Positions 1 to 21,814 of a DNA stretch of 64,000 nucleotides are shown piece after piece. Origin of the DNA: Candidatus Bathyarchaeota archaeon (GTDB taxonomy: Archaea; Thermoproteota; Bathyarchaeia; Bathyarchaeales; Bathycorpusculaceae); the NCBI GenBank assembly GCA_963827165.1, contig CAWGZR010000005.1, positions 736,001 through 800,000 of the forward strand, written 5' to 3'. Each line of letters opens with the position of its first letter. The stretch's first letter is position 1. The position numbers were made by a program, and so were the translations under genes. The notes below the pieces were generated by a model. The model was not told the origin of the DNA. It searched no databases and was given only the letters and a program-made list of their open reading frames with translations.

Positions 1-516
1 AACAAAGAACTCCTATCAGAAATGAAATCTGCGGGCTGCCAAACCATGTTTTTCGGCGTCGAATCTGGATCGCCTCGGATTCTGCAGAAACTCAACAAAG
101 GCATTGATCTGCAGGAGGTTGTGAAGGCTTTTGAGCTCTGCAGGCAAGTGGGCGTGCAGACTGTGACGTCTTTTATGCTGGGGATTCCAGGTGAAACCGT
201 CGACGACATGAACGAGACTTTCGACTTTGCTAAGAAGCTGAAGGCGGATTGGTGTCAATTCAACATCTATATAGCCTGCCCAGGCAGCGCGCTCTACGAC
301 GAAGTAATAAACAAAGGCCTCTACGATCAAATGTACGGCTATCTTGCACGGGTCAAAACCGACCAATTCGATTACGACACACTCACCACGATTCAACGCG
401 ATTTCCAGAGAAGCTTCCAGAAATCCGCCGCCCAAAACTTTATGCGGGTAGCAAAGCAAGAAGGCTTAGGAAGCGCGGTCAAGAAGAGTGCGTCGATGGT
501 TTTTCGCCGCTCATAA
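1..516 (+). CDS. B12-binding radical SAM protein, C-terminal part (5' truncated by window edge)
   Basis: Frame is open from base 1 (NKELLSEMKSAGC...). FGVESGS, FMLGIPGET and CPGSALY motifs match the class B radical SAM barrel and the neighbouring paralog. Confidence 0.85.
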   Translation, partial: NKELLSEMKSAGCQTMFFGVESGSPRILQKLNKGIDLQEVVKAFELCRQVGVQTVTSFMLGIPGETVDDMNETFDFAKKLKADWCQFNIYIACPGSALYDEVINKGLYDQMYGYLARVKTDQFDYDTLTTIQRDFQRSFQKSAAQNFMRVAKQEGLGSAVKKSASMVFRRS

Positions 517-670
517 AAGGCTTTAATCACCAGAAAAGGGTTCAAACTTTAGTTCGGTTTCTTTTTTTTAGCATTTTCAAGAGGATGCAACATCTTTGTT
601 GCCAAACTAGACAACTATATTAACGCGTGGAGTTAATCTAACTAAAATATTACGAATTTAGGGGAGAAAG

Positions 671-2107
671 ATGAAAACTCATGTAACCCTTGTGAATCCA
701 CCCTACCCCGGTCACTCATTTCCACATCCGCCTTTCCCGCCGCTGGGCATTGGCTACGTAGCCGCCGTTTTGGAGAAGAACAAATTTGTCGTCGACGTCG
801 CAGACGCCCTCGTCCTTGGAGTAAGCTACGAAGGGTTAAAACAGGAATTCCTCAAACGCAAACCAGACATCGTCGGTTGCACATGCAACACCCTAACTTA
901 CAAATCCGCCCTTGCATGCCTGAAAGCCGCCAAAGAAGCCAACCCCAAATGCATAACCGTCATCGGTGGACACCACGTCACCTTCGAAGACGAACAAGCC
1001 CTTAAAGACGAGCAGACGCTAGACCTCGTCATCCGAAACGAAGGTGAATACACTATGCTAGAGCTCGCCGAGCGGGTGGAAGCCGGCAAGGATTACCGCG
1101 ACATCATCGGCACAACTGTAAGAGGCAAAGACGGTGCAATAGTGAGGAACCCTAAAAGAGCTCACATCGAAAACCTCGATGAACTCCCATTCCCAGCCCG
1201 TCACCTATGGCCGCTGGAAGCCACCTCAAAATATGGCAAAGTAATGTTCGACATTATCGCAAGCCGCGGCTGCTCCTTTGCATGTGACTTCTGCATCGAG
1301 GTCCGCATGCACGGGCAAAAATTCCGCAAACGCAGCGTAGCAAACGTCTGCGAAGAGCTTGAACAGTGTAAGAAAGATTTCGGCGCAACATGGTTCAGCT
1401 TCGTCGACGCCGCCTTCACGGTGGACCAGCAGTTCACCTCAGACCTGTGCGACGAAATCATAAAGCGCAACCTCAACATCAACTGGGTTGCTGGAACCCG
1501 CGTAGACATGGTCACTGAAGAATTGCTCAAGAAGATGGCTAAGGCAGGCTGCAAATCCGTTTGGTACGGCGTCGAAAGCGGCGCACAAAACGTGCTTAAC
1601 GAGATGCGTAAAGGCATCACGTTGGAGCAAACCAAGAAGGCGTTCCATTGGACTGTTGATGCGGGAATGAAGCCTGACCCGAACGTTGTGTTGGGCTTCC
1701 CAGGTGAAACCAAAGAGTCCGCGTGGGCAACCATAAAGCTGTGCCAGGAAATCGCCCCATACTACATGGCGTCTTACACCATAGCTACACCATACCCAGG
1801 CACGCCGCTCTACTATCAAGTTAAAGAGAAAGGTTACCTAAAAGACACAGACTTCGACCACTACGACACAGCCACGCCAACCTTCGAAACCCCAACCATG
1901 ACCATCCAAGAACTCCGCAAACTCCGAGCAAAAGCGTGGTCAAGCTTCTACGAACGACCAAGCTACATACGAGCCATGTTCAAAAAAAGCTTCATCTACG
2001 GATTAGCCGCCATGAAAGCAGCCGCCACCTTTAGGCTCATCGACCTGCGAATGGCACTGCAACCAAACAAAGTACCGCCAAAGCCGCCTTCAAAAAGCCA
2101 CTTCTAA
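671..2107 (+). CDS. Cobalamin-binding radical SAM protein (class B methyltransferase/BchE-like; includes Grs/Gmm-type enzymes)
   Basis: N-terminal LVNPP/PPLGIGYVAAVL/GGHHVT/NEGE B12-binding domain. SRGCSFACDFC (CxxxCxxC), GVESG, GFPGET and PYPGT motifs. Confidence 0.92.
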   Translation: MKTHVTLVNPPYPGHSFPHPPFPPLGIGYVAAVLEKNKFVVDVADALVLGVSYEGLKQEFLKRKPDIVGCTCNTLTYKSALACLKAAKEANPKCITVIGGHHVTFEDEQALKDEQTLDLVIRNEGEYTMLELAERVEAGKDYRDIIGTTVRGKDGAIVRNPKRAHIENLDELPFPARHLWPLEATSKYGKVMFDIIASRGCSFACDFCIEVRMHGQKFRKRSVANVCEELEQCKKDFGATWFSFVDAAFTVDQQFTSDLCDEIIKRNLNINWVAGTRVDMVTEELLKKMAKAGCKSVWYGVESGAQNVLNEMRKGITLEQTKKAFHWTVDAGMKPDPNVVLGFPGETKESAWATIKLCQEIAPYYMASYTIATPYPGTPLYYQVKEKGYLKDTDFDHYDTATPTFETPTMTIQELRKLRAKAWSSFYERPSYIRAMFKKSFIYGLAAMKAAATFRLIDLRMALQPNKVPPKPPSKSHF

Positions 2108-2181
2108 GCGCCCGGCCAACATTTTTCTTTTCTCCGTTTCATTCTTAAGAAAGATTTCCCTTGCAAAAACAAGCTGTTTTT

Positions 2182-2478: not shown

Positions 2479-2573
2479 GCATCATCTCCAGCCTTGCTAT
2501 TTTAGGCGTAGGTTTACTTAATCAACATTGTCATAGAACATCTTAAAAATGGGGCGACGCAAAAAGGGGCTGG

Positions 2574-3305
2574 TTAATCTTTGGGTTTGAGGGTTGCTTC
2601 TTCCACGTCCATGTAGCAGAAGTCTCCTTCGCGGAACGGTGACCCGCCGAAATCAACGACTTTGCTTTTCTTTGTGAACTTGGTAATCTCGACCCGTTGT
2701 TTGAACAGCGGCGCATCAAGCGATGTGGAGTGGTATTCTCCTGGTTCGCCTGAAACATCGATTCCTTTGCCTGCAGGACCAACCAGCGGCTGCATGTCCT
2801 CAATGCATTTGCGGTCTATTTGCCTTGCCAGCCATTCCTCACCAAAATACCTTTTGTCGATGCAGCTGAGGATGGCTTTTACGCCTGTTGACTGCTCCAA
2901 CTCCATGATTCGTTTTCGGTGGCGATTCCCCGGAATCAGGTTTAGGGGACGGTCCCAAAGAGGCATGATAAGTTCATACCCCAGCTTCTTGCAGGCATCT
3001 TTCCAGACGCGTCGGTGGTGCACATTGTCGATGTCGCCTGTCACGATAGCTTTTGCGCCTTCTTCTTTGTGCAGGCGTTCCAGAGTTCCCATGATGTCGT
3101 CGTAGCGGTTGTCAGTGATTTTTACGAATTGGTGAGGCATGCCTAAAGCTTTGGTTTGTTGCTCGATGACTTTGAAGCTGTGGAAAACATATGGCTCCAT
3201 GTAAACGTATGTAACCAAGCAGGCCACTTCATGACCTTGCTCGACAACCTTATGTAGCGCTGTGCAGCAGTCTTTTCCGCCGCTCCAATGAACAACAACC
3301 TTCAT
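2574..3305 (-). CDS. DUF71/Dph6-like PP-loop ATP pyrophosphatase (divergent copy)
   Basis: WSGGKDC PP-loop, TGDI, PLW and GEPGEYHS motifs. Confidence 0.88.
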   Translation of the reverse strand: MKVVVHWSGGKDCCTALHKVVEQGHEVACLVTYVYMEPYVFHSFKVIEQQTKALGMPHQFVKITDNRYDDIMGTLERLHKEEGAKAIVTGDIDNVHHRRVWKDACKKLGYELIMPLWDRPLNLIPGNRHRKRIMELEQSTGVKAILSCIDKRYFGEEWLARQIDRKCIEDMQPLVGPAGKGIDVSGEPGEYHSTSLDAPLFKQRVEITKFTKKSKVVDFGGSPFREGDFCYMDVEEATLKPKD

Positions 3306-3647: not shown

Positions 3648-4760
3648 TCACTTTTCAAGTATCTGTTTTATTGCTCGTACGAGTTTTTGATTGTCTTTTG
3701 CTGAGCGGACTGTGACTCTGAAGTATTTGTCGTCCAAGCCCATGAATGTGCAGCAATCTCGAATCAGCATCAGTTGCGTAGTCAATGCGTCCTTCAGCTT
3801 GGTGGAGGTCACTTTGCCGTTTTGAATTTTTATAAGCAGGAAGTTTGTCACGGACGGGTAAACGTGTAAGCCTTCGATTTCGCCGAGGCTTTTAGCAAGA
3901 GTTTCTCTTTCTTTGGCTATTGTCTTTTTGGTGTTTTCGATGAATTCTGTGTCACTGAACGCCGCAAGAGTTGCGCAACTTGCGAGGCTATTGATGCTCC
4001 AAGGCAACCTGACATTCTCCAGTTTCCCAACCATGTTCGGCGCTGCTAATCCGTAGCCTAATCGTATGCCTGCCATGCCGTAGAACTTTGTAACTGACCT
4101 AATCACAAAAAGGTTGTCGTATTCTTTCACCATGCCTGCCATAGTGGTTTCTTCCCCTTTGTCGGCAAATTCTATGTAGTTTTCGTCTACGCTGAATATT
4201 ACGTCTTTTTTGTGGCAGAAGTCGACCAGCTCCAACACTTCCTCCATAGTGTACAGTCTTCCCGATGGGCTGTGTGGGTTGCAGATGGAGAGGATTTTTG
4301 TTTCAGGTGTTATTGCCTGCTTTATTTTTTCGTTGTCCATGGCAAATCCGTCTCGTAGCTGAAGAAAGTTAACTTCGCTTCCAACTCGCAGTGCTGCCTT
4401 CTCGTACTCGCTGAAGGATGGAATCGGAATTAGCGCCTTGAATCCTCGAGGCAAAATCTCAGTGATGGCGTAGATAAGCTCAATTGAGCCGTCTCCTAAA
4501 ACGACATTTTCTTCCTCGACGCCGTGCCCGACATATTTGGCTATTTCCGCTTTGAACTCGACGGGGTTTGGGTCAGGATAGAACTTTATGAGTTTCGCCT
4601 GCTCTCTCACGGCTTCGACGGCTTTGGGTGATGGTCCGAGGAAATTTATGGGTCCGCTGAACTCTAAGACTTCTTCAATGGGTACTTTGTATTTTCGACT
4701 GAAGCCCCAGATGTCTCCGCCGTGACTGACGAATCTGCGTTCTCTACATTGACCCTGCAA
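3648..4760 (-). CDS. cobD: L-threonine-O-3-phosphate decarboxylase CobD (PLP fold I; HisC-like)
   Basis: N-terminal HGGD typical of CobD, NPHSPSG, VDENY and RSVTKFYGMAGIRLGY (PLP lysine); cob gene context. Confidence 0.75.
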   Translation of the reverse strand: MQGQCRERRFVSHGGDIWGFSRKYKVPIEEVLEFSGPINFLGPSPKAVEAVREQAKLIKFYPDPNPVEFKAEIAKYVGHGVEEENVVLGDGSIELIYAITEILPRGFKALIPIPSFSEYEKAALRVGSEVNFLQLRDGFAMDNEKIKQAITPETKILSICNPHSPSGRLYTMEEVLELVDFCHKKDVIFSVDENYIEFADKGEETTMAGMVKEYDNLFVIRSVTKFYGMAGIRLGYGLAAPNMVGKLENVRLPWSINSLASCATLAAFSDTEFIENTKKTIAKERETLAKSLGEIEGLHVYPSVTNFLLIKIQNGKVTSTKLKDALTTQLMLIRDCCTFMGLDDKYFRVTVRSAKDNQKLVRAIKQILEK

Positions 4761-5298
4761 CTTTCTCTTCCTCCATCAACCTTGAGATTTCTTTTTCCAC
4801 TACAACATGAGCCTTAAAGTGAGCATTATACAGGTTTACAACCTTGTATAGCCAGTAGATTCCGCCCACTCCGAGCGTAACAATTGTGATTAGAACATAT
4901 GTTTTTATCGGTATCGTCTGAGGCATGAACATCCGCTCTGGAAAAGCAGAAGCCAGAAAAGCATCTTGGTTCCGTTCATGTAAAAGCAAATCCTTAGACA
5001 ACATGTAAGTGATGATGAAAGCAGGGATAATCAGTATTATGCTGACCGCCCACGCCCTAGAGTTCCTTTCAGGGAAAACCGCACTTGCAGGAGGTGCCTG
5101 CCTCCCATTGCCTTTGAGGTAATCAATAACCTTTTTCTCCAAGTCAGCTTCGCGTTCAAAATGTTTGTTCCTGCCTTCAAGCAAGCGGTGGAACATTGGG
5201 AAAAAAGCGATCCCAAAAGTCACGATTGCCGACAGAAACCACATGGAAAACCAAACTTTCCTGTCGCCGTTCAATTTGTTTTGCGATGCGGTTTCCAT
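4744..5298 (-). CDS. DUF4234-like membrane protein
   Basis: Repeated 'IVTFGI/IVTLGV...YW...N.H' hydrophobic segments. Confidence 0.6.
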   Translation of the reverse strand: METASQNKLNGDRKVWFSMWFLSAIVTFGIAFFPMFHRLLEGRNKHFEREADLEKKVIDYLKGNGRQAPPASAVFPERNSRAWAVSIILIIPAFIITYMLSKDLLLHERNQDAFLASAFPERMFMPQTIPIKTYVLITIVTLGVGGIYWLYKVVNLYNAHFKAHVVVEKEISRLMEEEKVAGSM

Positions 5299-5394
5299 TT
5301 TAAGTTACTTTCCGTTTGGCTGCTTAAAAGGTTGGAGCACCCAAACTTTATAAGGTCTTCCATTGGCATCTAAGAATAAACTGGGCGAGGGGAA

Positions 5395-6078
5395 ATGCTG
5401 CTTTCCATAATAATTCCCGTGCACAACGAGGAATTAACGGTAGGCGACATTATCGACCGCGTAAAAGCAGCAGCAAAGCAGACGGGTTTGCAGACGGAAA
5501 TCATTGTTGTGGATGATCATTCTTGTGACAGATCCCTCGCCGTTGCTGAGAAAAAAGGCGTTAGGCTTTACTCGCTTAAGCAACATCTTGGCAAAGGCTA
5601 TGCGTTGCGTGCAGGCTTCGCTAAAGCAAGCGGAGACGTGATAGTCACCATCGACTCGGACGGTAGCCACATGCCTGAAGAACTCTCTGAGATATTAAGG
5701 CCGATCCTTCGTGATCAAGCGGACCTCGTCATCGGATCAAGATATATGAACCACAAGCGGGTGTCAGCACGCAGGCTAAATGCATTCGGTGTACGCATGT
5801 TCAACTACTTCATCCAGCTGTTCACAGGTGTAGCCATCACCGATTCTCAGTCAGGTTACCGCGCCATGACACAGAAAGTCCTTAGAAGCCAAAAGCTCTA
5901 CTCTGGCGAGTACGAAATAGAATCTGAAATGCTGGTTAAAACCGCCAAAAAAAAATTCCGCATCGCCGAGGTTCCCATCAGTTTTGAGCAGAGAACCTAC
6001 GGCAGATCGGGCGTTGATCCCCTGTGGGACGGCTCAAAAATCTTGTTCTGGATAATAATGGCAAGTACGAAGGGTTAG
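5395..6078 (+). CDS. GT2 glycosyltransferase (Dol-P-sugar synthase/DPM1-like)
   Basis: IIIPVHNE, VDDHSCD, GKGYA, DSDGSH, GSRY and DSQSGYR motifs. Confidence 0.92.
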   Translation: MLLSIIIPVHNEELTVGDIIDRVKAAAKQTGLQTEIIVVDDHSCDRSLAVAEKKGVRLYSLKQHLGKGYALRAGFAKASGDVIVTIDSDGSHMPEELSEILRPILRDQADLVIGSRYMNHKRVSARRLNAFGVRMFNYFIQLFTGVAITDSQSGYRAMTQKVLRSQKLYSGEYEIESEMLVKTAKKKFRIAEVPISFEQRTYGRSGVDPLWDGSKILFWIIMASTKG

Positions 6079-6080
6079 CC

Positions 6081-7073
6081 GTGGACGACGAAGCGTTACC
6101 TAAAGTTTCAATCATAGTTGCTTCATACAATAACGAGCAAACCATCGAGGAATGCCTCAAATCCGTCTTGGCCCTCGATTACCCCGCAAGCTCAATCGAA
6201 GTAATCGTGATGGACGGCGCCTCAAAGGACGCCACAGTGAAAAAGGCGCAGCAATACCCCATTAAAGTGGTCTCAATCCGCCTGAACGCGCCTGCCGCTT
6301 ACAACTACGCTATGAAAAACGTCGCGACAAACCAGATTTTAGGTTTCATCGACTCAGACGCGAAAGTCGAGCCCCAATGGCTGCGAAAACTTGTTCCCCG
6401 CTTAAGAGAACCACAAATTGCAGGGGTAAGCGGCAGCATAGAAACCTGGAACGTCGAAAACCCATGGGCCAGAAGCATCGGGTACGAACTCAAAAACCGC
6501 TACCAACGCATAGGCAAATATACGAACCGCATCGCTACCATGAATCTGCTCCTCAAAAAGGCAGTTATCGAGGAAGCTGGCGGTTGGGATGAGAATTTGC
6601 CGAGTCAGTACGATACGGATTTGGGTTTTCGTTTGAGTGCCAAAGGCTACAGGATCGCTTATGAACCAAGTGCGGTTTGTTATCACTACAATAGACCGAC
6701 GCTTACGTCTTACTACAGGCAGCAGCTCCAATATGGGAAGAACACTTTGAAGCTGTATTTCAAACATGGCGGTTTAGCGAAGGGCGATGAAATCACGGAT
6801 TTTGGGATGAACATTCAGCCCGTCCTCATTTTGGCGGTCATTGTCTTTTTCCTTGTAGGGATCGTCCCACCTGTAAGGCTTCTCTGGGCTGGCTCAGCTT
6901 TAATTATAGTCATAATGATTCTCTATTTCAATTATTGTGCGACTCGAATCGTCGTCAAATTCCATGACGCAAACGCTTTCCGTTTGGTTGTCTTGTATTT
7001 TGTTCGTGCATGGGCTTGGTTTGTCGGCGCAACAATAACCACCATTCTGTACGTTGCTGGGAGGCGTAAATGA
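6081..7073 (+). CDS. GT2 glycosyltransferase with C-terminal membrane helices
   Basis: VSIIVASYN, DGASKD, FIDSD, GGWDE, YDTDL and RQQLQY motifs. Probable GTG start at 6081 (ORF track starts at 6024). Confidence 0.9.
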   Translation: MDDEALPKVSIIVASYNNEQTIEECLKSVLALDYPASSIEVIVMDGASKDATVKKAQQYPIKVVSIRLNAPAAYNYAMKNVATNQILGFIDSDAKVEPQWLRKLVPRLREPQIAGVSGSIETWNVENPWARSIGYELKNRYQRIGKYTNRIATMNLLLKKAVIEEAGGWDENLPSQYDTDLGFRLSAKGYRIAYEPSAVCYHYNRPTLTSYYRQQLQYGKNTLKLYFKHGGLAKGDEITDFGMNIQPVLILAVIVFFLVGIVPPVRLLWAGSALIIVIMILYFNYCATRIVVKFHDANAFRLVVLYFVRAWAWFVGATITTILYVAGRRK

Positions 7074-8269
7074 TTCCCCCTAAGGTTTGCTTCATCTCGC
7101 CCGAGTATTGGCCTCTCACAGGAGGCACAGGCTCCTACGTCTACTACCTTTCCAACGAACTCCTCAAGAACGGCTACAAAATCTATGTTGTCACGGCAGG
7201 TAACCAAGCCCAAGACATCCAAGTCAACCCGCGACTAAACGTCTCTTTCCTTAAAATTCCCAAAACCCCCATTGTCAAATCGTTTATGCTTGCGGGCGCA
7301 AGCCACAGAAAACTCCAAAGTGTCCGCGACACCGCCGGCGTAGATGTCACCCATCCGCAGCTCCCGTTAACACCAAATTTTGCGGTGCCACCTAAATTTG
7401 GCAAAACCCTTGTATGCACTGTGCATTCAACGTGGAAAGGTGAAGCGGAAGCCATCCGAGGTGAACCTTACAGCCGCTTAAACGCCAACGAAAAGTTTCT
7501 TGTGAGTTTCAACAGATTTTTGAGGTTTTTTGAAGAAGGCATGCTTCATCGTGCACGAAGAATCATCGCGGTAAGCCACTTCACGAAATGGGAACTAACA
7601 ACCTACTATAAGATTCCTCCGAGCAAAATCCAAGTCATACACAACGGTGTTGACACGCGAAAGTTTCAACCAACCTCGGACAAACGCAAAGTCAAGCAGG
7701 AACTCGGATTCAACCCCGACGACTTGGCCATCGTATCAGTCGGCAGGCTCTACGCACGCAAAGGCTTATTTACGCTCATCGATAGCATGCCAACCGTCGT
7801 CAAAAGTTTCCCAAACGCGAAATTCATCGTTTCAGGCAAGGGACAAAGCGACGAAATGCACAAACTCACCGCCTATGCCGAGAAAATCGGGATGAGAGAC
7901 AACTTGGTTTTCACTGGTTACTATCCTGACAAGAAGTTGCCCCTGCTCTATCAAGCCGCAGATGTATTCGCTTTCAGCACCTTCTACGAACATCACCCCT
8001 TCGCAGTATTGGAAGCGCTTTCCACAGGTTTACCCGTAGTGACGACTCGTGTCGGCGGAATCTCCGAAACTATACAAAACGGCAAAAACGGCTTTTTAGT
8101 CGAGCCGTTCAAACCAAAGCAGTTCGCTGACAGAATCCTCTACCTCCTGGAGCATCCCGCGGAGGCCAAGGAAATGGGGGCGCTTGCGAGAAAAACTGTT
8201 CTTGATGAATATGATTGGCGAATAGTCGTCAAAGATGCCATGAAAGTATACGATAAAGCGCTGAGCTAA
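7070..8269 (+). CDS. GT4 (GT-B) glycosyltransferase
   Basis: PEYWP..GG, AVSH, HNGVD, VGRL..RKG and EHHPFAVLEA motifs. Confidence 0.92.
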   Translation: MIPPKVCFISPEYWPLTGGTGSYVYYLSNELLKNGYKIYVVTAGNQAQDIQVNPRLNVSFLKIPKTPIVKSFMLAGASHRKLQSVRDTAGVDVTHPQLPLTPNFAVPPKFGKTLVCTVHSTWKGEAEAIRGEPYSRLNANEKFLVSFNRFLRFFEEGMLHRARRIIAVSHFTKWELTTYYKIPPSKIQVIHNGVDTRKFQPTSDKRKVKQELGFNPDDLAIVSVGRLYARKGLFTLIDSMPTVVKSFPNAKFIVSGKGQSDEMHKLTAYAEKIGMRDNLVFTGYYPDKKLPLLYQAADVFAFSTFYEHHPFAVLEALSTGLPVVTTRVGGISETIQNGKNGFLVEPFKPKQFADRILYLLEHPAEAKEMGALARKTVLDEYDWRIVVKDAMKVYDKALS

Positions 8270-9216: not shown

Positions 9217-9220
9217 TTGT

Positions 9221-10654: not shown

Positions 10655-10720
10655 CCAAGGCAGATCTCCCGAAACACTAACAGGTTTAGAGTAGGCTTTG
10701 ACGGGATGTTAAATATTTCC

Positions 10721-12171: not shown

Positions 12172-12209
12172 ATACCCTACACTAATTAAAAGGAAATATA
12201 GACTTTGTC

Positions 12210-14035: not shown

Positions 14036-15508
14036 GTGAGCGAAACCAAAAGCATCTGCCCAGAATGCCAGAAAAAAATAGACGCCCAACTACGGCAAGC
14101 CAACGGTAAAATAAAAATCACCAAGCATTGCCCAGAACACGGCGAATTCGAAGCTACACACTGGCAAAGCACACCCGTCTTTAATCACATGCAAACCTAC
14201 GATCAATTTCAGTACCTGGGAGATTTAAACGCTTCAAAAAACCCTGAAGGTTGCCCCTACGTCTGCGAAACTTGCAACAAGCATGCTTCAGGAACAGTTA
14301 TTGGAGTAATCGACGTGACGAAACGTTGCAACCTTCGTTGCGCAATCTGCTTCTCAACATTTCCCGAGCAAGGTAACGATTACGAGCCAACCAAGGAACA
14401 TCTCATAAAAATGCTTGAGTTCGTGAGCCAAGCAAACCCCAAGCCTCCTGCCATTCTGTTTTCAGGCGGAGAACCCCTTGAACGCGAGGACATGCCCGAA
14501 ATTGTCGGCGCCGCCCACAGACTAAAGTTCATGACTATTCTAGCAACCAACGGGACTCATTTGGTTGACACCCCGGGGCTAGCAAAGAAGCTCAAAGACA
14601 AAGGCTTGAACATTGTTTATTTGTCATTTGACAGCTTCCATGACGATTTTAACAAGAAGATTAGAGGAAAGGCGCTGCTTGAGGAAAAACTCAAAGCAAT
14701 AGAGGTTTGCCGCAAGCATGACATGGAAATCATCTTGGTTAATACGTTGATGAAAAGTCTTAACGATAAGGAAGTTGGCGACATGATACGGTTCGCCGCT
14801 AAAAACACGGACATAGTGCGGGGCTTAATCTTCCAGCCAATAGCCTTCACCGGTAGAGCCACGGAGAACCCTTTCCGCGAAAACTTCCGCGAATGGTCCT
14901 TTGCCGAAGACGTTGAAAAACAAACAGGCGGCGAAATCAAAGCAACCGATTTGTATCCCATGTCAGTTATGACGTCGCCGATCAAGATAATGCGAAAATT
15001 CATGAAAAAGCCTTGGCCCCTGTTTTCATGCAGCCCGCAGTGTGGAATTGTAAACTGGATTTACGTTTCTAAAGAGGGCAAAATGTTCCCTATCAACCGG
15101 TTTGTCAACTTTGATCGTTTCTTCTCAACCATTAGAAAAACTGCCGAGTCCGCCGAATCCAAAGGCAAACTCTCGCTGCTCTCTTCACTGTTTATGGCGT
15201 CTATGCTTTCGATGGATATGCTTCTTGTGACGCAAGAAGTGGGTATGCTTACGCTCCTGAATTCGATCATGCGTATGCATCTTTCACCTTCATATCAGTC
15301 ACTTGGCAAAATCCGAAGAAGAATCTTTCTTTTGGGCTGCATGGCTTTTATGGATTCATATAATTTCGATGTAAACCGCGTAAGACGCTGTGTAGTCCAC
15401 TACATTACACCAGACCTGAAAATCATACCTTTCTGCGCCTACAACAATATCCACCGGGTGGCAATCGAAAAAGAATATGCGGAAAAGCAAAAGAAAACTC
15501 AAGCTTGA
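14036..15508 (+). CDS. tes: Tetraether synthase (Tes/GDGT-MAS, MJ0619-family) radical SAM homolog
   Basis: CPEC...CPEHG metal site, CPYVCETC auxiliary cluster, CNLRCAIC SAM cluster, and C-terminal CSPQCG, MAFMD..NFD, RCVVHY and IPFCAYN. Confidence 0.82.
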   Translation: MSETKSICPECQKKIDAQLRQANGKIKITKHCPEHGEFEATHWQSTPVFNHMQTYDQFQYLGDLNASKNPEGCPYVCETCNKHASGTVIGVIDVTKRCNLRCAICFSTFPEQGNDYEPTKEHLIKMLEFVSQANPKPPAILFSGGEPLEREDMPEIVGAAHRLKFMTILATNGTHLVDTPGLAKKLKDKGLNIVYLSFDSFHDDFNKKIRGKALLEEKLKAIEVCRKHDMEIILVNTLMKSLNDKEVGDMIRFAAKNTDIVRGLIFQPIAFTGRATENPFRENFREWSFAEDVEKQTGGEIKATDLYPMSVMTSPIKIMRKFMKKPWPLFSCSPQCGIVNWIYVSKEGKMFPINRFVNFDRFFSTIRKTAESAESKGKLSLLSSLFMASMLSMDMLLVTQEVGMLTLLNSIMRMHLSPSYQSLGKIRRRIFLLGCMAFMDSYNFDVNRVRRCVVHYITPDLKIIPFCAYNNIHRVAIEKEYAEKQKKTQA

Positions 15509-16029
15509 TTTGTAACTTGAATTGGCAAAACGCAGTAGTCATACGTAAACTGGTATGTGCCGCCATCGGCGGGGTTGAATGTGTACAGTTCAAAAACAAC
15601 CCAGTAGCTGCCGACCTGATTCTCTGTGACTGTGATTGACTGATGCCAGCTTGCTCCATTCTTTAGCGTCATGTTGCATGTTTCGGCGGCTGGGGCGTTC
15701 ACTGGAAAAGAGTTAAGATTCGGGGTTATTTTCACCAAAACTTGGTACTGAACGGTCCAACCCATGTTGTTAACGACGGTTAATGGGACGGTAAAGGTGC
15801 TATTCTGATTGGCGACTAAAAGCTGTGGGTAATTCGCCGCTTTATTTTGTGCGTCAAGCAGGTAAATCGTGCTGTATCCTTCAGGCGCCGGCTTAAAGAT
15901 AACGTAGTAGCCGACAAGCATAGATGAGATGATGATCAAGGCGAGAGCGATGGCGACTAAGTAGCCTTTGTCATCGTTTAAGCCGATTTTCTCTCCAATG
16001 CTTTTGACACGTTCTAACTGTATCCGCAT
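15499..16029 (-). CDS. DUF1616-like membrane-anchored extracellular protein
   Basis: One TM helix, then EGYSTIYLLD...A.NYP and beta-rich VVFELY domain. Confidence 0.7.
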   Translation of the reverse strand: MRIQLERVKSIGEKIGLNDDKGYLVAIALALIIISSMLVGYYVIFKPAPEGYSTIYLLDAQNKAANYPQLLVANQNSTFTVPLTVVNNMGWTVQYQVLVKITPNLNSFPVNAPAAETCNMTLKNGASWHQSITVTENQVGSYWVVFELYTFNPADGGTYQFTYDYCVLPIQVTNQA

Positions 16030-16708
16030 CTAAAAATCCCTTGAATATAGTGCTAAATATTTCTATGCCTGACTTAAATGGTTTAAGTTTGGTCTTCCCA
16101 TATTTGCGCGGTTTGTAAGTCGTGGGGATTTCAACCATATTGTATCCGACTTTGGCGAATTGGACCAGCATTTCGGTGGCAAACGCCATGTCTCCTTCTA
16201 CCAATGGAACGTTGTCGATGCATTCATGTGATATTGCCCTGAACCCTGATTGGGTGTCGCTCAGTAGTTGGCTGTAAAAGAAGTCGTAGACCAAGGTTAT
16301 GATTTTGTTTCCGATAAAATTCGTGAATCCCATGGCTTTTTTCGGGTCAAACATGCGAGTGGCTAAAACCATGTCTGCGTCTTTCTCAAGCATTCTTTCA
16401 ACCAAGCGGTTGATGTGTTTGACCTCGTAGGTTCCGTCGCCGTCAACCATGACTATTATGTTTCCCTTCGCGTTTTTCATACCTGTTCGAAGTGCTATTC
16501 CGTAACCGCGTCTTGGCTCGAGAATTAGCCTGCAAAAACCTGTGTCTTTAATGAGCTCCATTGTCCCGTCTGTAGAGTTGCCGTCGACGACGATGATTTC
16601 GTTTGGGTAAGCTAGCTCTTTGTGGATGGTGTTTACTGCTTCAAGTATGTTTCCTGCCTCGTTGAGTGTCGGAATGACTACCGAAACCAATTCGACTTTT
16701 GATGTCAT
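15971..16708 (-). CDS. GT2 glycosyltransferase (DPM1-like)
   Basis: VVIPTLNE, VDGNSTDGT, GYGIA, DGDGTY and DTQSGFR motifs. Confidence 0.92.
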   Translation of the reverse strand: MTSKVELVSVVIPTLNEAGNILEAVNTIHKELAYPNEIIVVDGNSTDGTMELIKDTGFCRLILEPRRGYGIALRTGMKNAKGNIIVMVDGDGTYEVKHINRLVERMLEKDADMVLATRMFDPKKAMGFTNFIGNKIITLVYDFFYSQLLSDTQSGFRAISHECIDNVPLVEGDMAFATEMLVQFAKVGYNMVEIPTTYKPRKYGKTKLKPFKSGIEIFSTIFKGFLDADTVRTCQKHWRENRLKR

Positions 16709-16751
16709 GGCTAACTCCTATCTTGAAGGCTATACTGTTTTCGCATCATGA

Positions 16752-17909
16752 TTAAATAAGCTCTTCGTATATTTCCACGAGAGATTCAACGTTTCGCTCC
16801 CAGCTATACTTTTCTTCCACCGCTGCTCGAAGCTCCAACCCACACGAGGATAACTCAGCATGGGAATATTCTAAGACTGCCCTAGCCATTGGCTCCGGCT
16901 GATTAGGCGGCACCAAAGTCCCACAATTTTCCATCAGAATTTCCCTTATTCCACCAACGTCTGTAGCTACAACCGGCAAGCCACATGCCATGGCTTCAAG
17001 CGCAACCAAAGGCAAGCCTTCCCCAGATTTTGACGGCAACACAAAGAAGTCAGCCGCGTTATAGCAAAGGGGCAAATCAACGTCGCTGACAAAACCCGTC
17101 AACCGAAAATTATTTTCTATTCCCAGTTGCCGAATTCTTTCTTGAACCCCCTTTTGGTCTGGTCCCTTTCCAACAACAAGGAAAACCAAATTAGGATTCT
17201 TCTTGACTGCAAGGTTCGCGCTTTCAATCAATGTGTCGATGCCGTTCTTGTAAACAAGTCTCCTCACCGTTAAGGCCACAACCGCGTTTTTGGGCATCCT
17301 AAATTTAATTCTCATTTCTTCGCGTTTTCCTGGCAGATGCCTGAAATGGCGCAGGTCCACCCCGTTGTGGATGACTTTGATTTTGTTTGGTTTTGCACCT
17401 AAACCAAGAACGTACTGTTTGGTTGCGTTACTTACAGCGATGATTCTGTCTGCTTCTCTTAGCGTCTCTTTCCCCACAGATAGGTCGTTTAGGCGTTCCA
17501 CGTTGTCGAACATATTGTCGTACTGGATGAACGTGTTGTGCTGGGTCAAAACGAACGGTTTGTTGTATCCTTTTGCAAGTTTAGCAGCGATCAACGAGGT
17601 CAAATATGGGTGGCCGTGTGCGTGGACTATGTCGGCTGCGTTTACGGCTTTAAGGAAAGTTTGTAGGCTTGTCGGGGTCGGGATAGAGTAAGGTATGCCG
17701 AGGCGGAATCCGGTGTTTAACGATTCATAGCACTGGACGTCTATGCCATCAACGGTGTAAGTTTTGGGGGTGTTGATGCGGTTGGTCACAACCATGGGCT
17801 TAAAGTTTAGGTTCATCAGCCGCTTGCTCTGTTCATAAACAACCTTTTCAATCCCGCCAACATGAGGCAGAAAAGTATGCGTAACAATGCATAAACTTGT
17901 TTGAACCAT
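16752..17909 (-). CDS. GT4 (GT-B) glycosyltransferase
   Basis: PHVGGIE, HAH, AVS, HNGVD and EGLPLVALEAMACG motifs. Likely ATG at 17909. Confidence 0.92.
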   Translation of the reverse strand: MVQTSLCIVTHTFLPHVGGIEKVVYEQSKRLMNLNFKPMVVTNRINTPKTYTVDGIDVQCYESLNTGFRLGIPYSIPTPTSLQTFLKAVNAADIVHAHGHPYLTSLIAAKLAKGYNKPFVLTQHNTFIQYDNMFDNVERLNDLSVGKETLREADRIIAVSNATKQYVLGLGAKPNKIKVIHNGVDLRHFRHLPGKREEMRIKFRMPKNAVVALTVRRLVYKNGIDTLIESANLAVKKNPNLVFLVVGKGPDQKGVQERIRQLGIENNFRLTGFVSDVDLPLCYNAADFFVLPSKSGEGLPLVALEAMACGLPVVATDVGGIREILMENCGTLVPPNQPEPMARAVLEYSHAELSSCGLELRAAVEEKYSWERNVESLVEIYEELI

Positions 17910-18636
17910 GGAGCCCAACTGCGTAACCTCCACAACCAACATACGATAATAAGCCTTATGGTAAATCCCCAACCAAGCGCGGAAGATAGAAAAATTTCAG
18001 ACTGAAGTGTCTAACCAAGAAACGGGCGTTCTGAAGCCAATGTTTATAAAACTCTTGGAAGGTGACTAATATTAAATCCGTAATTCGTTTCATGAGCGTA
18101 AATTGAACCTGGATGTTCAAAATTTCATTTTATTCGCTCTTGATGGGGCTTGAATCGGGGTTGAATTTGTAAAATATTGCCAAACTGCGCCTTTATCTTA
18201 CGAAAAAGTGAACTTGTGCACCATGGTTTTGTGGTGACTTTGAACTTGGGTGACGTTGATTTGCAGTGAAAACGCGGTAACTTGACTACGTTCGTAAAAG
18301 TGGTCTGAGTTGAGAGATTGCGCCGCCTTAAAATCGTTTTCAACAGCCACTCAGATGTGAACCGCTGACTAAATAGTAATGCTTATATGAAAAGGTTGGA
18401 TAAACCAACCAGTCGTGGGCTGAATAATTTGTTGAACATCGAGAAAAGACCGTTTGTCCCAATCAACTTTCTAACAACTGACCGATTATCTGGATGTTTG
18501 ATGGCTAAAACCCCGTTTTGTTGCCCAAATTGTTCTGAGATTAACACTTCAAATCATTTGCAGTTTACATTCACTTGGACCCAACGAAGAACAGAAGGTA
18601 AATCGTGAAAGAATATTTAGGGAGGAAGAAATTAAA

Positions 18637-19323
18637 ATGAAAGTTGTTGCGGCTTGGAGCGGCGGAAAAGACAGCGCCTATGCAGAGTACTTGGCAACCC
18701 AGCGGGGCCTCGAAGTAGTCAACATTTTGACCATGATGATGAGCAAGGAAAAATCAAACTTCCACATGATACCCGCAGAGATTCTGGATGCACAGTCAGA
18801 CGCCATAGGCATCCCCATAGTGAAGCAGCAAGCCACCCCAAAAACATACGAAGATGACTTCAAAGCTGCGCTGCGGCGTTTCAAAACTGACGGCGCCGAA
18901 GGCTTGGTGACAGGTGACATCTACGAGGTAGCTGGACACGAACAGGGTTGGCTGGGCAGAGTGCTCAAAGAAGTCGGTTTACAACCGATAAAGCCGCTGT
19001 GGATGCTTGACACGAAGCAGATTTACCTTGACTACCTGAAAACAGGGTTTAAGGCAACAGTGGTTAGAACCAACCTGGAGAAGCTGGGCGTAGAGTGGCT
19101 TGGGCGGGTGCTTGACAGAAAATTCTATGACGACATCCTCAAACTCGGCAACGTTGATCCGTGCGGCGAAGGCGGCGAATACCACACTGTTGTGACAGAT
19201 GGACCGACATTTAAGAAAAAGATTGAAATTCTAGAAACACAAAGACACAAGCTAGACAGCGGCTTCGGATACCTCGAAATCAAAAAGTTCGAAGTCAAGC
19301 CGAAAGGCAAGGTAAAACCGTAG
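18637..19323 (+). CDS. DUF71/Dph6-like PP-loop ATP pyrophosphatase (B12-associated type)
   Basis: WSGGKDS, TGDI, PLW and DPCGEGGEYHT motifs; first gene of the cobT-cobS-cobY operon; GGAGG RBS upstream. Confidence 0.9.
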   Translation: MKVVAAWSGGKDSAYAEYLATQRGLEVVNILTMMMSKEKSNFHMIPAEILDAQSDAIGIPIVKQQATPKTYEDDFKAALRRFKTDGAEGLVTGDIYEVAGHEQGWLGRVLKEVGLQPIKPLWMLDTKQIYLDYLKTGFKATVVRTNLEKLGVEWLGRVLDRKFYDDILKLGNVDPCGEGGEYHTVVTDGPTFKKKIEILETQRHKLDSGFGYLEIKKFEVKPKGKVKP

Positions 19324-19324
19324 A

Positions 19325-20425
19325 ATGGACCAATCACTCGATGTAATAATTGCCAATAATGAGCTGAAAGCGAAGGCTTTTCTGGATGAAGTGGCAGGCA
19401 AAAACCCACTTTTCATATGCACAATCGGCACCACGGAAACCGGCAAAATCGCAGGGATATCTGCGGCTGGAGCAAACCCCGAGTTCACGGACTACACTCC
19501 GCCAGCCGATGCTGAACTGCTTCTCTTAGGCAAATGCAAATCCATCAACGGTGTTCCTATAACTCCAGACGGAATCCCCACGCCTGGGTTGATCACGAGG
19601 TCGGCTTTGCAACTCGCTAACATTCCCGTGCTCATAGCCAGCGGCGGGGTAAAGGTGAAGCCTCAGATTCCTTTTTTGGATTTGGGTGGAAATCCAGGAA
19701 GGGACATTCGAAGCGGCAATGCAGTTGACAATGTTGCGGAAGTTATTGAACGCGCTAAAGTTGCTGGACAAAACCTGGCAAAAGCCGTGGATTACCTTGT
19801 GATTGGCGAAAGCATTCCAGGCGGAACAACAACCGCGCTTGGCGTCTTATCTGCTCTGGGAGTGAAAGCAGAAGGAAAAGTAAGCAGCACGCTACCTCAA
19901 AATCCTCACAGTTTGAAGGCTGAAACGGTTCGGTCGGGTTTGACAGCTGCAGGCGAAGATTTCGGCACTTTAGCGAAGGATCCTATTCGGGCTATTTCCT
20001 GTGTTGGCGACCCCATGATGGCGGCCTTTACGGGTTTGGTTATTGGGGCATCAAGTCAGGTTCCTGTTTTGATGGCGGGTGGCACTCAGATGAGCGCTGT
20101 CTTGGCCCTGATTAACGCTTTGGAACCCGATGTTCTGTGCAACGTGGCTGTGGGCACAACTCGCTGGGTTGCGAAGGACAAGTCATCTGACCTTAAAGGA
20201 ATTGTGAAGCAGTTCTGCGACGTGCCGATTTTGGCGGCTGACCTTAACTTTTCAGAATCCCGTTTTCCAGGCTTACAAATCTATGAGACGGGTCTAGTCA
20301 AAGAAGGGGTCGGCGCAGGCGGAGCTTCTATCGCTGCGATGGCGAAGCTTGGTGGCGCTGTAACGGCTGACCTATTGCTTAAAGAGATAGAGCGCAATTA
20401 TGGTTCGCTTATGGGTTTGAAGTGA
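19325..20425 (+). CDS. cobT: Archaeal-type base phosphoribosyltransferase CobT
   Basis: GISAAG, TPPADAE, PTPG.IT, GESIPGGTTTA, GGTQM and KEGVGAGG motifs. Confidence 0.88.
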   Translation: MDQSLDVIIANNELKAKAFLDEVAGKNPLFICTIGTTETGKIAGISAAGANPEFTDYTPPADAELLLLGKCKSINGVPITPDGIPTPGLITRSALQLANIPVLIASGGVKVKPQIPFLDLGGNPGRDIRSGNAVDNVAEVIERAKVAGQNLAKAVDYLVIGESIPGGTTTALGVLSALGVKAEGKVSSTLPQNPHSLKAETVRSGLTAAGEDFGTLAKDPIRAISCVGDPMMAAFTGLVIGASSQVPVLMAGGTQMSAVLALINALEPDVLCNVAVGTTRWVAKDKSSDLKGIVKQFCDVPILAADLNFSESRFPGLQIYETGLVKEGVGAGGASIAAMAKLGGAVTADLLLKEIERNYGSLMGLK

Positions 20426-20426
20426 G

Positions 20427-21200
20427 ATGGCTATTAAAGAGCTCAAGAACCTGCTGTCTTTCCTCACAATCTTTCCCGTTGCAATGGACAAGGATATGCT
20501 TACTGACTGCGCAAAAGATATGTGGGCTTTTCCGCTGATCGGCTCTTTCATCGGTTTGATTGCCGGCGTTTTCGGTTGGGTTGCTGGCCAGTTTGTTCAC
20601 GGCTTAGTCATCGGCGGCTTAGTTTTGGCAGCTCTTTTGCTAATAACTGGGCTTCATCACACAGACGGGCTTCTTGATTTCGGCGACGGCGTCATGGCTC
20701 ACGGCACACCCGAACACAAGATTGCGGTCATGCATGACCAACTAACAGGCGCAGGCGGCTTATCCATGGGCATCATGACTATGCTTATCGCAGCCTTAGC
20801 CATCGGGCAATTAAGTGGCAATGGGCTTTTCAAAATTCCCCTGATAATCGGCGGCATCATCGCAGTTGAGGCTTCTGCGAAACTTTCGATGGTCGTTATG
20901 GCTTGGGCTGGAAAATCTGTTCATCAAGGCATGAACTCGTCTTTTCTTGAAGCCATGAGTGGAAGCAAAGGCACCTTGCGCTTGGTTGCTGCCGTTGCTA
21001 TCTCTTTCGCTGTTGCTTTGCCTTTCCTGGGCTGGGCGGGCGCTTTCGTTGTCTTAGCCGGCGTGATTACTAGTTTGGTGATGGTTGCGGTTGCCCACCG
21101 GCACTTCGGCGGGGTCACGGGTGACGTTTTCGGTGCCACAAACGAGATAACCCGAATGGTATGCGTTATCGTTTTGCTGGCGGTGGTTGCTTGGGTATAG
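20427..21200 (+). CDS. cobS: Adenosylcobinamide-GDP ribazoletransferase (cobamide synthase)
   Basis: SFLTIFP, TGLHHTDGLLDFGDG, MHD..TGAGG and GGVTGDVFGATNE, all canonical. Confidence 0.92.
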   Translation: MAIKELKNLLSFLTIFPVAMDKDMLTDCAKDMWAFPLIGSFIGLIAGVFGWVAGQFVHGLVIGGLVLAALLLITGLHHTDGLLDFGDGVMAHGTPEHKIAVMHDQLTGAGGLSMGIMTMLIAALAIGQLSGNGLFKIPLIIGGIIAVEASAKLSMVVMAWAGKSVHQGMNSSFLEAMSGSKGTLRLVAAVAISFAVALPFLGWAGAFVVLAGVITSLVMVAVAHRHFGGVTGDVFGATNEITRMVCVIVLLAVVAWV

Positions 21201-21814
21201 CCGCTCTTGTGATGGCTGGGGGAAAAGGGACCCGCATGCAAATCCAAGAAGAAAAACCCCTCATACGAGTCTGCGGAAAACCTGTTATAGAATACGTAAT
21301 TGCAGCATTGCAAAACGCCCAAAAAATTGACTGCATCTTCGTGGCAACAAGCGCTTGTACGCCTAAAACCGCCAAATACCTGAACGGATTTTCAGTTAAA
21401 GTGCTTGATACCCCCGGGAAAGACTATGTTTCGGATATGGGCTACGCGAGCCAAAACTTGAAACTGGGCGTTTTCGTGGCTATTGCGGCTGATTTGCCTC
21501 TTGTCACGAGCGAAGTGGTCGACACTATCGTTGAACGATATGAATGCTGCGGCAAACCCGCTCTTACCGTCGCGGTCCCCCTGGAAACAAAGAGGCGGCT
21601 TGGGATGTGTGTCGAGTACTCTTTTAAAATGGATGACAAAGATGTCGTTCCCGTTGGCATCAACGTTATTGACGGGCGCAAGAGGTACGGTGACGAGTGG
21701 CTTGATCAAGACATCTACCTGCTTGATCTGGACGAATTAGCCATCAACATTAACACAGTAAAGGAACTGCAGCTTGCCGAAAATTTTTTGGCTGAGCGAA
21801 AAACTTGTTTCTAG
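21191..21814 (+). CDS. cobY: Adenosylcobinamide-phosphate guanylyltransferase
   Basis: MAGGKGTRM, EKPL, DY.SD, ADLP and NINT motifs. Probable TTG start at 21191 overlapping the cobS end. Confidence 0.88.
   Translation: MGIAALVMAGGKGTRMQIQEEKPLIRVCGKPVIEYVIAALQNAQKIDCIFVATSACTPKTAKYLNGFSVKVLDTPGKDYVSDMGYASQNLKLGVFVAIAADLPLVTSEVVDTIVERYECCGKPALTVAVPLETKRRLGMCVEYSFKMDDKDVVPVGINVIDGRKRYGDEWLDQDIYLLDLDELAININTVKELQLAENFLAERKTCF

Follow-up and report, generated by a model that had tools for sequence, protein, structure and literature searches.

A conserved gene island of Bathyarchaeia combining paralogs of tetraether lipid and cobamide synthesis genes

Gene content and extent of the island

The stretch of DNA analysed here (the window; 64,000 nucleotides, G000:C5:736001-800000) belongs to the genome of a member of the Bathyarchaeia (G000; 3.13 Mb, 14 contigs, 94.5% complete). 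Its positions 1-21814 contain paralogs of the tetraether synthase Tes, of the prenyltransferase DGGGPS and of several enzymes for the late steps of cobamide synthesis, together with radical S-adenosylmethionine (SAM) proteins and glycosyltransferases (GT). Window proteins were taken from a listing of open reading frames (ORFs) and scanned against Pfam and NCBIfam. All gene classes named for 1-21814 in a preliminary description of the window were recovered in these scans; the DUF362 and radical SAM/SPASM domains, assigned there to one protein, reside on two adjacent ORFs. The island delimited in that description is real, but 1-21814 is an incomplete account of it: it extends about 20 kb further upstream (locus L097), beyond the edge of the window. 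Positions 1-21814 make up the downstream half of a lineage-specific island of about 40 kb that is conserved in one order of Bathyarchaeia (Bathy-6 / Bathycorpusculum-like). Its members are the following.

1-516, + strand: B12-binding radical SAM protein, 3' part (Radical_SAM domain); the gene starts upstream at G000:C5:735146
671-2107, + strand: B12-binding radical SAM protein (B12-binding 68.7 bits, Radical_SAM 76.4 bits)
2574-3305, - strand: DUF71a, PP-loop ATP pyrophosphatase (Dph6 108 bits, cut-off 197), without EGGE motif
3648-4760, - strand: CobD2, threonine-phosphate decarboxylase paralog (TIGR01140 278.7 bits, below the cut-off of 290.55)
4744-5298, - strand: DUF4234 membrane protein with about three hydrophobic segments, a conserved island member
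5395-6078, + strand: GT2a, similar to AglJ and dolichyl-phosphate hexose synthases (Pfam/NCBIfam)
6024-7073, + strand: GT2b, with C-terminal membrane segments (Pfam/NCBIfam)
7070-8269, + strand: GT4a (Pfam/NCBIfam)
8266-9324, - strand: DUF362 protein (166 bits at residues 69-262), downstream of the Gms-like gene
9221-10654, - strand: Gms-like radical SAM/SPASM protein (477 aa, AhbD-like core at residues 118-467)
10721-11344, - strand: CobYa, adenosylcobinamide-phosphate guanylyltransferase paralog (MjCobY 2MZB, E 4.8e-17), overlapping cobSa by 4 nt
11341-12171, - strand: CobSa, diverged CobS paralog (TIGR00317 110.5 bits, cut-off 110)
12172-12209, no strand: short A+T-rich spacer separating cobSa from the divergent epimerase-UbiA-Tes operon, a putative promoter region
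12210-13148, + strand: GalE-like nucleoside diphosphate (NDP)-sugar epimerase/dehydratase (GalE model 171 bits, cut-off 262)
13148-14035, + strand: UbiA2, DGGGPS-like prenyltransferase paralog (DGGGPS models best, 163-165 bits)
14036-15508, + strand: Tes2, tetraether synthase paralog (NF045702 463.3 bits, cut-off 450)
15499-17972, - strand: block of a DUF1616 membrane protein, GT2c and GT4b (Pfam/NCBIfam)
15971-16708, - strand: GT2c, AglJ-like (Pfam/NCBIfam)
16752-17972, - strand: GT4b (Pfam/NCBIfam)
L097:7480-8475, - strand: CbiB2, a second CbiB, in the island part upstream of the window

The genes cobSa, cobYa, radical SAM/SPASM and DUF362 form a tight string on the minus strand, and the epimerase-UbiA-Tes genes diverge from it across 38 bp. 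The 20 kb upstream of the window (L097) contain another five complete B12-radical-SAM genes and the beginning of the one extending to window position 516. Also encoded there are CbiB2, an Amidohydro_3 protein, a regulator of the AsnC type, a SAM methyltransferase and a third copy of DUF71. The genome holds two copies each of Tes, DGGGPS, CbiZ, CbiB, CobD, CobY and CobS and three of DUF71; CobT was present as a single copy in the regions scanned. The G+C content of the window is even (0.41-0.50).

Tes2 and UbiA2 are paralogs of core lipid enzymes

Tes2 clears the cut-off of its family model by a small margin, also in the scan of the whole genome (462.9 bits). The preliminary description had suggested looking for a second, canonical tes, and such a gene is present at C5:395589-397010; it scores 663.5 bits and is 41% identical to Tes2. 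Residues 3-482 of Tes2 align with the solved structure of GDGT-MAS (7TOL, E 7.8e-112), with the zinc-ribbon (Zn_ribbon_HMPTM, 59.8 bits), the radical SAM CxxxCxxC and the C-terminal cysteine motifs in register. As expected of the Tes family, Tes2 would join two archaeol-type lipids tail to tail. In one related genome (G139:C6:329-1699), the match to Tes2 is divided into two abutting pieces (residues 186-485 and 3-158), which may reflect a frameshift or an assembly error.

UbiA2 remains below the DGGGPS cut-offs (PRK12882 163.0 bits, cut-off 296; PRK12884 164.7 bits, cut-off 269). Four UbiA proteins were found in the genome, namely a heme O synthase, a MenA-like protein, the window copy and the protein of locus L010. 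The latter is the better DGGGPS candidate, with 189.2 bits for PRK12882 and 249.5 bits for PRK12884, both also under the cut-offs; the proposed search for another DGGGPS outside the window thus had a positive outcome as well. The closest solved relative of UbiA2 is the DGGGPS 6M31 (E 1.2e-30, residues 25-280), with which both Asp-rich motifs, NDxxDxxxD and DxxxxxGD, are aligned. Residues N63, D64, D67, D71, D185 and D192 are invariant among 28 orthologs. A function as tetrapyrrole prenyltransferase was considered and is disfavoured by the weaker matches to chlorophyll synthase (E 1.3e-14) and heme O synthase (58.6 bits). Judged by their sequences, Tes2 and UbiA2 are diverged paralogs of canonical genes located elsewhere in the genome.

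Candidate tailoring enzymes

The radical SAM/SPASM protein matches the AhbD model with 313.7 bits, below the cut-off of 500, and carries an N-terminal extension of 117 residues with a CxxC...CxxC arrangement. Its gene is present as a single full-length copy in G000, and 79 of 151 genomes of the class have full-length homologs, whose alignment begins at residue 12-20. A homolog search returned at least 120 matches; the listed ones were 77-91% identical and named 'radical SAM protein'. Gms, the synthase of glycerol monoalkyl glycerol tetraethers (GMGT), is described in the text consulted of PMC11214058 as an AhbD homolog of at least 400 aa with a SPASM/Twitch domain and an N-terminal extension of 100 aa, and 188 Gms sequences are reported there from Bathyarchaeota. 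Further criteria for Gms are an E of 1e-80 or better to the T. guaymasensis enzyme, a place in the Gms clade and annotation as COG4001. The architecture of the island protein fits these published features (AhbD homolog, at least 400 aa, N-terminal extension of about 100 aa) and makes it a candidate Gms. A corrinoid-modifying role, considered on account of its AhbD/NirJ-like matches, was dropped since Gms itself is an AhbD homolog with N-terminal extension. The domain match of the DUF362 protein covers residues 69-262, and the real start of this protein is therefore probably inside the listed ORF.

Seven B12-radical-SAM proteins are encoded in the island. They are paralogs with 30-58% identity, all with B12-binding and radical SAM domains. 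For the gene ending at window position 516, the B12-binding domain lies in the upstream part (L097:19146-20000), which is 54% identical to the paralog at L097:15260-16636. The protein encoded at 671-2107 is 54-58% identical to two upstream paralogs; its best models, HpnJ and BchE, score far under their cut-offs (HpnJ 217 bits, cut-off 577.6), and it is a putative Gmm/Ted-type methylase or desaturase of lipid tails. Gmm2-type B12-radical-SAM genes occur in several copies in many Bathyarchaeota, according to the same portion of PMC11214058, and a distant Gmm homolog of one Bathyarchaeon has been described, in the source as far as consulted, as a desaturase of glycerol dialkyl glycerol tetraethers (GDGT).

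Three GT2 and two GT4 genes accompany these enzymes. The order of the GT2a-GT2b-GT4a operon (5395-8269) is kept in relatives and in deep lineages. The DUF1616-GT2c-GT4b block follows Tes2 in 53 of the 70 related loci with sufficient flank, and is also present in deep lineages.

Cobamide paralogs of the island

Exactly two CobS genes were found in the genome, both inside the window. CobSa barely passes the model TIGR00317 and reaches 89.3 bits for PF02654 (cut-off 23.2). In a phylogenetic reconstruction, the CobSa sequences formed a monophyletic clade of their own (SH-aLRT 99). The clade keeps 27 of the 32 columns that are at least 80% conserved in 122 canonical CobS sequences, and the five changed columns form one block: D87N (19/19), a gap at G93, M102A (19/19), D104A/V and G108T/S/N (CobSb numbering). 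The third Asp of the loop-2 motif HxDxxxDxxD, an Asp in 98% of the canonical sequences, is replaced by Asn in 19 of 19 CobSa sequences of that alignment, and N109 (the position of Salmonella D89) and A123 (that of Salmonella M104) are both invariant in 32 of 32. The His and the other two Asp residues of this motif are retained. The loop-6 motif GxxGDxxG is also kept, with G251, D252 and G255 invariant and G248 conserved to at least 90%. Only four full-length clusters at 50% identity (P0001, P0003, P0012 and P0013) were found among the 150 matches listed from a set of 1.84 billion representatives, and below these four the scores of the matches listed drop to the level of canonical CobS. A solved CobS structure was not found by sequence search. 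In the text consulted of PMC8092220, each Asp of HxDxxxDxxD is needed in Salmonella CobS, the loop is assigned to binding of adenosylcobinamide-GDP, and cobamide-dependent growth is lost with the D89A variant and, at low cobinamide, impaired with M104A.

CobYa does not reach the CobY cut-offs (TIGR00454 124.1 bits, cut-off 174.7; NF045495 93.3 bits, cut-off 250), but these do not separate CobYa from CobYb, which fails them as well (155.0 and 127.6 bits). In a quick tree of 106 CobY sequences CobYa formed its own clade. Thirteen CobY genes adjoining cobSa in Bathycorpusculum-type loci nested, however, in the CobYb clade (SH-aLRT 96 and 98); judging from this tree, the CobSa partner has therefore been replaced in that sublineage by a copy of the canonical enzyme, which suggests that the two CobY types are interchangeable. 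In G151, a Bathycorpusculum-type genome, both cobS and cobY are still present in two copies. One extra C behind window position 10727, a few codons before the cobYa stop, was seen in a soil metagenome (X2) and a peat metagenome (X10) and appears to be strain variation or an indel error of one assembly.

CobD2 is kept in the island in G090, G098, L104 and L105. The canonical CobD (G000:C4:193210-194265, 304.4 bits) and CbiB1 (TIGR00380 280.1 bits) sit together on contig C4. CbiB2 passes the same model with 230.1 bits (cut-off 165.9), and its clade differs from 30 CbiB1 sequences of the class at 13 of 68 conserved columns. Taken together, Amidohydro_3, CbiB2, CobD2, CobYa and CobSa correspond to consecutive steps of one known cobamide pathway, in a set without CobT. 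Two CbiZ, a CbiC and a strong CobQ/CobB-type amidotransferase match were also found in the genome; because of the last two, the organism probably makes corrins itself.

Conservation of the linkage

A survey of the gene order around tes, ubiA, cobS and cobY had been proposed in the preliminary description, and the linkage turned out to be kept across three lineages of Bathyarchaeia despite local rearrangements. In the first, 80 loci were fetched with Tes2 as query (68-95% identity) and compared gene by gene. Sixty-six loci extend at least 4.7 kb upstream of Tes2, and 64 of them contain UbiA, the epimerase, cobSa and a cobY within 4.8 kb upstream of Tes2; the two misses are L028, without a cobY match, and L087, without a UbiA match (matches counted at a coverage of at least 50%). 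With 64 of 66 related loci retaining the core, its linkage goes beyond chance. The core also stays together in eight loci in which the surroundings are rearranged (L024, L027, L028, L031, L049, L053, L057 and L068). In the first five of these the SPASM gene is located behind Tes2, and in L053 the genes CbiQ-CbiO-CbiO-DHH abut cobYa. Tes2 at 80-86% identity, with the island, was also found on contigs titled Candidatus Acidoferrum (L047), Limnocylindrales bacterium (L085) and Methanocella sp. (L082), which are probably mis-binned rather than transfers.

The second lineage is represented by G090, a one-contig genome of another family, and its relative G098. Both contain the same gene set at 38-58% identity: SPASM, GT4a, GT2b, GT2a, DUF4234, cobD2, cobYa, cobSa, Tes2, UbiA, epimerase, DUF1616 and GT4b. 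Unlike in the window, cobSa and Tes2 are on the same strand. Upstream of the set, G090 carries six B12-radical-SAM genes, CbiB2 adjoining an Amidohydro_3 gene, a CbiP-like gene and methyltransferases. In this lineage (g18), an ORF of about 480-500 aa is placed between cobSa and Tes2 (L093:9671-11116 in G090, L094:9833-11329 in G098); in G090, domain matches identify it as a pyridine-nucleotide-disulfide oxidoreductase (Pyr_redox_2 and dimerisation domain), a gene that the window does not have at this place. The third lineage was reached via a 46%-identical CobSa representative. Its loci L103-L105 jointly contain, at 28-61% identity, cobT, cobSb, GT4b, GT2c, DUF1616, Tes2 and UbiA, then cobSa, cobYa, cobD and DUF4234, and further GT2a, GT2b, GT4a, DUF362, the SPASM gene and CbiB2; L103, the shortest, has only part of the set. 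No epimerase match was found between UbiA and cobSa in these three loci. The core as such is retained in the second and third lineages at 40-57% protein identity.

Co-occurrence was determined in a sample of 151 Bathyarchaeia genomes from across the class, G000 included, with at least 46% identity required for the Tes2 type and 43% for the CobSa type. Both types were found in the same 15 genomes and neither in the other 136; the carriers are related, so these counts represent non-independent events. In 14 of the 15 carriers Tes2 and CobSa share a contig at a distance of about 1.8-2.2 kb. The fifteenth, G148, is fragmented, and its CobSa-type match is a fragment at a contig edge (38% over residues 116-268) that was assigned to the type. 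All carriers have a second, canonical-type CobS match, and 26 of the 136 other genomes have one canonical CobS. Two CbiB copies are present in 13 of the 15 carriers (one in G086 and G139) and one in each of the 23 other genomes holding CbiB.

Proposed function and its alternatives

Conservation, paralogy and strict co-occurrence make it likely that the island is a functional unit. In view of the assignment of UbiA2, Tes2 and the Gms-like enzyme to lipid synthesis and of the array of B12-radical-SAM genes, a tailored tetraether lipid would be its most economical product. We tentatively favour, at somewhat less than even chance, a dedicated pathway for such a lipid in which a second, diverged cobamide loop pathway supplies the cofactor, possibly as a variant corrinoid. 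UbiA2 and Tes2 would supply diether and tetraether core lipid as a pool of its own, the Gms-like SPASM enzyme would cross-link the chains, and the seven B12-radical-SAM paralogs would methylate, desaturate or otherwise tailor them. The epimerase together with the three GT2 and two GT4 enzymes could build a glycosidic head group. Amidohydro_3, CbiB2, CobD2, CobYa and CobSa would constitute a parallel pathway for the aminopropanol linker and the nucleotide loop, without a CobT of its own, that most likely delivers a corrinoid, possibly a variant, to the B12 enzymes of the island. For the cross-linked and methylated tetraether postulated in the preliminary description, the Gms architecture and the multi-copy B12-radical-SAM array are added support; the genes DUF71b-cobT-cobSb-cobYb, counted there as part of the system, are an ordinary salvage cluster (see below).

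For the cob paralogs the evidence points both ways, to cofactor supply and to an action on the lipid itself. The former is in keeping with the logic of the pathway, the replacement of CobY and the score of CbiB2 above the CbiB cut-off; the latter agrees with the position of cobSa-cobYa beside non-B12 families, the lack of an island CobT and the altered loop-2. Several observations weigh against the dedicated pathway with cofactor supply. CobSa is unlikely to be an ordinary cobamide synthase because Asn and Ala are fixed at the positions of D89 and M104, where D89A and M104A are harmful in Salmonella, with the reservation that D to N differs from the tested D to A. The neighbours of cobSa-cobYa are UbiA2, Tes2 and the Gms-like gene and not the B12-radical-SAM genes, which is unexpected for pure cofactor supply. 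In g3 and g7 genomes the Gms-like gene is on a different contig from the core. GT2a and GT2c, which resemble dolichyl-phosphate hexose synthases, could serve protein glycosylation instead, and the conservation is partly due to shared ancestry, all carriers being related.

Somewhat unlikely, but the strongest competitor, is a chemical re-use in which the cob paralogs act on the lipid itself in a Kennedy-like route, yielding a phosphodiester head group or a lipid-anchored corrinoid. CobD2 would provide an amino-alcohol phosphate that CbiB2 may couple to a carboxylate, CobYa would activate the product with GMP and CobSa would transfer it to a lipid hydroxyl; by analogy, the CobS reaction is formally the transfer of a nucleotide-activated phospho-alcohol. 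The strict co-occurrence of CobSa and Tes2 favours this route, as does the constant placement of CobSa-CobYa, divergent beside UbiA2-Tes2 and in one string with the Gms-like gene. An island without CobT paralog has no dedicated source of the usual acceptor, alpha-ribazole phosphate. CobSa, with only four full-length clusters of its type among the matches listed, retains the H, D, D residues and GxxGDxxG, yet shows fixed changes in the loop linked to binding of the GDP-activated corrinoid. On the other hand, the exchange of CobYa for a CobYb-derived copy is easier to account for with cobinamide phosphate as the substrate of both, CbiB2 is still matched by the CbiB model, the amidohydrolase beside CbiB2 and the second CbiZ fit corrinoid remodelling, and no such head group was found in the literature consulted. 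More specifically, CobSa might be a lipid phosphotransferase that evolved from cobamide synthase and uses a GDP-activated phospho-alcohol from CobD2/CbiB2/CobYa, which we consider unlikely. It is likewise with little confidence that we name the donor, aminopropanol phosphate in a mild form and cobinamide phosphate in a bold form, and the acceptor, a hydroxyl of a diether, tetraether or glycolipid. If true, the island would contain a head-group pathway borrowed from B12 synthesis and, in the bold form, a membrane-anchored corrinoid serving peripheral B12-radical-SAM enzymes of lipid tailoring.

The two halves of the island may also be uncoupled, with Tes2/UbiA2 and the cob paralogs as condition-specific isozymes, the GTs, DUF1616 and the epimerase serving the cell surface or N-glycans, and ancestry and co-regulation alone keeping the genes together. 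The carriers all fall in a single class, most of them in a single order, each paralog can still be assigned by the model of its family, the nearest models for GT2a and GT2c are those of AglJ and dolichyl-phosphate hexose synthase, and AglB is encoded in the same window (47275-49599). But the core has outlasted the rearranged surroundings of the eight loci named above and the changed orientation in G090 and G098, the co-occurrence holds in 15 of 15 carriers (including the G148 fragment) and in none of the 136 others, and the substitutions in CobSa are fixed at functionally tested positions, so that we consider this explanation quite improbable. Still less credit can be given to a non-lipid product, such as a heavily C-methylated peptide or other natural product, or a special polyprenyl glycan carrier. 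Arrays of B12-radical-SAM genes and SPASM maturases are typical of clusters for ribosomally synthesised and post-translationally modified peptides (RiPPs). The island has seven such genes and a SPASM enzyme, and low-scoring RiPP methyltransferases and maturases were among the NCBIfam matches; the RiPP models are, however, far below their cut-offs, a precursor peptide is not known, though none was searched for, Tes2 passes the Tes model, UbiA2 is DGGGPS-like and the SPASM enzyme has Gms architecture. Butanetriol tetraether (BDGT) was also considered as the island product and rejected: the source, as far as consulted, attributes it to Baizosediminiarchaeum (Bathy-8), the island was found in one order of the sample, and no link between the two emerged.

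Relation to known systems

In its match to the Tes model, full-length alignment and conserved cysteines, Tes2 resembles Tes/GDGT-MAS (MJ0619, 7TOL); it differs from known Tes as a second, diverged copy that is always paired with DGGGPS-like and CobS/CobY paralogs. The likeness to the tailoring enzymes Gms, Gmm, Ted and Grs consists in the Gms-type architecture and the multi-copy B12-radical-SAM genes. Compared to archaeal cobamide assembly and salvage (CbiZ, CbiB, CobD, CobY, CobS, CobT and DUF71-B12), five consecutive steps are matched by island paralogs; in contrast, the island set has no CobT, and its CobSa forms a separate clade with Asn/Ala and is bound to lipid genes.

Duplicated operons for cobamide salvage and remodelling beside genes of corrinoid-dependent enzymes occur in Dehalococcoides. 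The island shares with them extra late cobamide genes in a region rich in B12-dependent enzymes, in line with a logic of cofactor supply. It differs in that the corrinoid would be consumed by B12-radical-SAM enzymes of lipid tailoring, a functionally required motif is changed in the duplicated CobS, and the tightest linkage is to non-B12 families (UbiA2, Tes2 and the Gms-like protein). In Kennedy-type transfer and in F420 synthesis by CofC/CofD, a phospho-alcohol is guanylylated or cytidylylated and then forms a phosphodiester with loss of a nucleoside monophosphate. These systems resemble CobY/CobS in reaction form only and have no sequence relationship to them.

Archaeal lipid genes are usually scattered, which makes tailoring enzymes hard to find. 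In this island a second DGGGPS/Tes pair, a Gms-like enzyme, seven B12-radical-SAM proteins and five glycosyltransferases are united in one conserved block, a candidate list for the lipids of Bathyarchaeia from land and gut habitats, which are very abundant and of which few cultures exist. No paper linking CobS or CobY with Tes, UbiA or Gms, or describing the cluster, was found in the open full texts searched, with subscription papers and supplements outside that search. If the cob paralogs only supply cofactor, the island would be, in the literature searched, the first lipid-tailoring cluster found with its own cobamide finishing line. In addition, the island sets apart a small clade of CobS proteins in which an essential motif is altered and which was never separate from the lipid paralogs in the genomes searched. 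The question why late cobamide synthesis is membrane-bound is raised in the text consulted of PMC8092220; the CobSa clade makes it testable. It may also be an instance in which lipid chemistry has recruited enzymes of B12 synthesis.

The canonical cobamide cluster and the surroundings

Adjacent to the island, and partly inside 1-21814, are the genes of a canonical cob cluster (18637-21814) and a transporter, listed here with the DUF71 paralog from upstream of the window.

18637-19323, + strand: DUF71b, head of the canonical cob cluster
19325-20425, + strand: cobT, archaeal (TIGR00303 397.6 bits)
20427-21200, + strand: cobSb (CobS model 151.9 bits)
21161-21814, + strand: cobYb, CobY-like
21811-25258, - strand: AP_endonuc_2 / xylose-isomerase-like TIM barrel, CbiQ and two CbiO-type ABC ATPases (energy-coupling factor (ECF) transporter), which travel with the canonical cob cluster
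L097:16839-17576, strand not stated: DUF71c, third DUF71 paralog

DUF71b-cobT-cobSb-cobYb and the ECF transporter genes are an ordinary cobamide salvage cluster; clustering of DUF71 with B12 salvage genes has already been published, as stated in the consulted part of PMC3541065. All three DUF71 paralogs are under the Dph6 cut-off. The motif EGGEYH is kept in DUF71b and replaced by GEPGEYHS in DUF71a and DGQGYHS in DUF71c, and the latter has the PP-loop SGGKE instead of SGGKD. DUF71a and DUF71c are located among the B12-radical-SAM genes. The TIM-barrel gene (21811-22689, - strand) lies between cobYb and CbiQ-CbiO-CbiO in most related loci that reach this far, and such an AP_endonuc_2-type protein may belong to the canonical salvage unit. 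In G090 the canonical cobS adjoins genes for a B12-binding-domain protein and an MtrH-type methyltransferase (L099:11843-13343; G090:C1:431842-433342), a pair that would represent, some 47 kb away from the island, a corrinoid methyltransferase system.

The region is carried at 99% identity or more by DNA contigs from soil metagenomes of two studies, and a relative at 90-95% identity was found in a peat metagenome of a third. One peat metatranscriptome contains identical short contigs at 12271-12537, 15329-15550 and 15840-15986, that is, within the epimerase gene, at the end of Tes2 and in the DUF1616/GT2c region. They are at most a hint of expression, as DNA carry-over is possible, and are silent on co-transcription.

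The remaining window consists of housekeeping genes (thermosome, MoeA, topoisomerase, AglB, PolB, CarS, proteasome and exosome genes). Two MoeA genes are arranged in tandem at 34955-37447. AglB (STT3), with a Glycos_transf_4 gene (47275-50494), and the CDP-archaeol synthase CarS (53659-54171) are outside the conserved block, 25-32 kb downstream of the island amid housekeeping genes.

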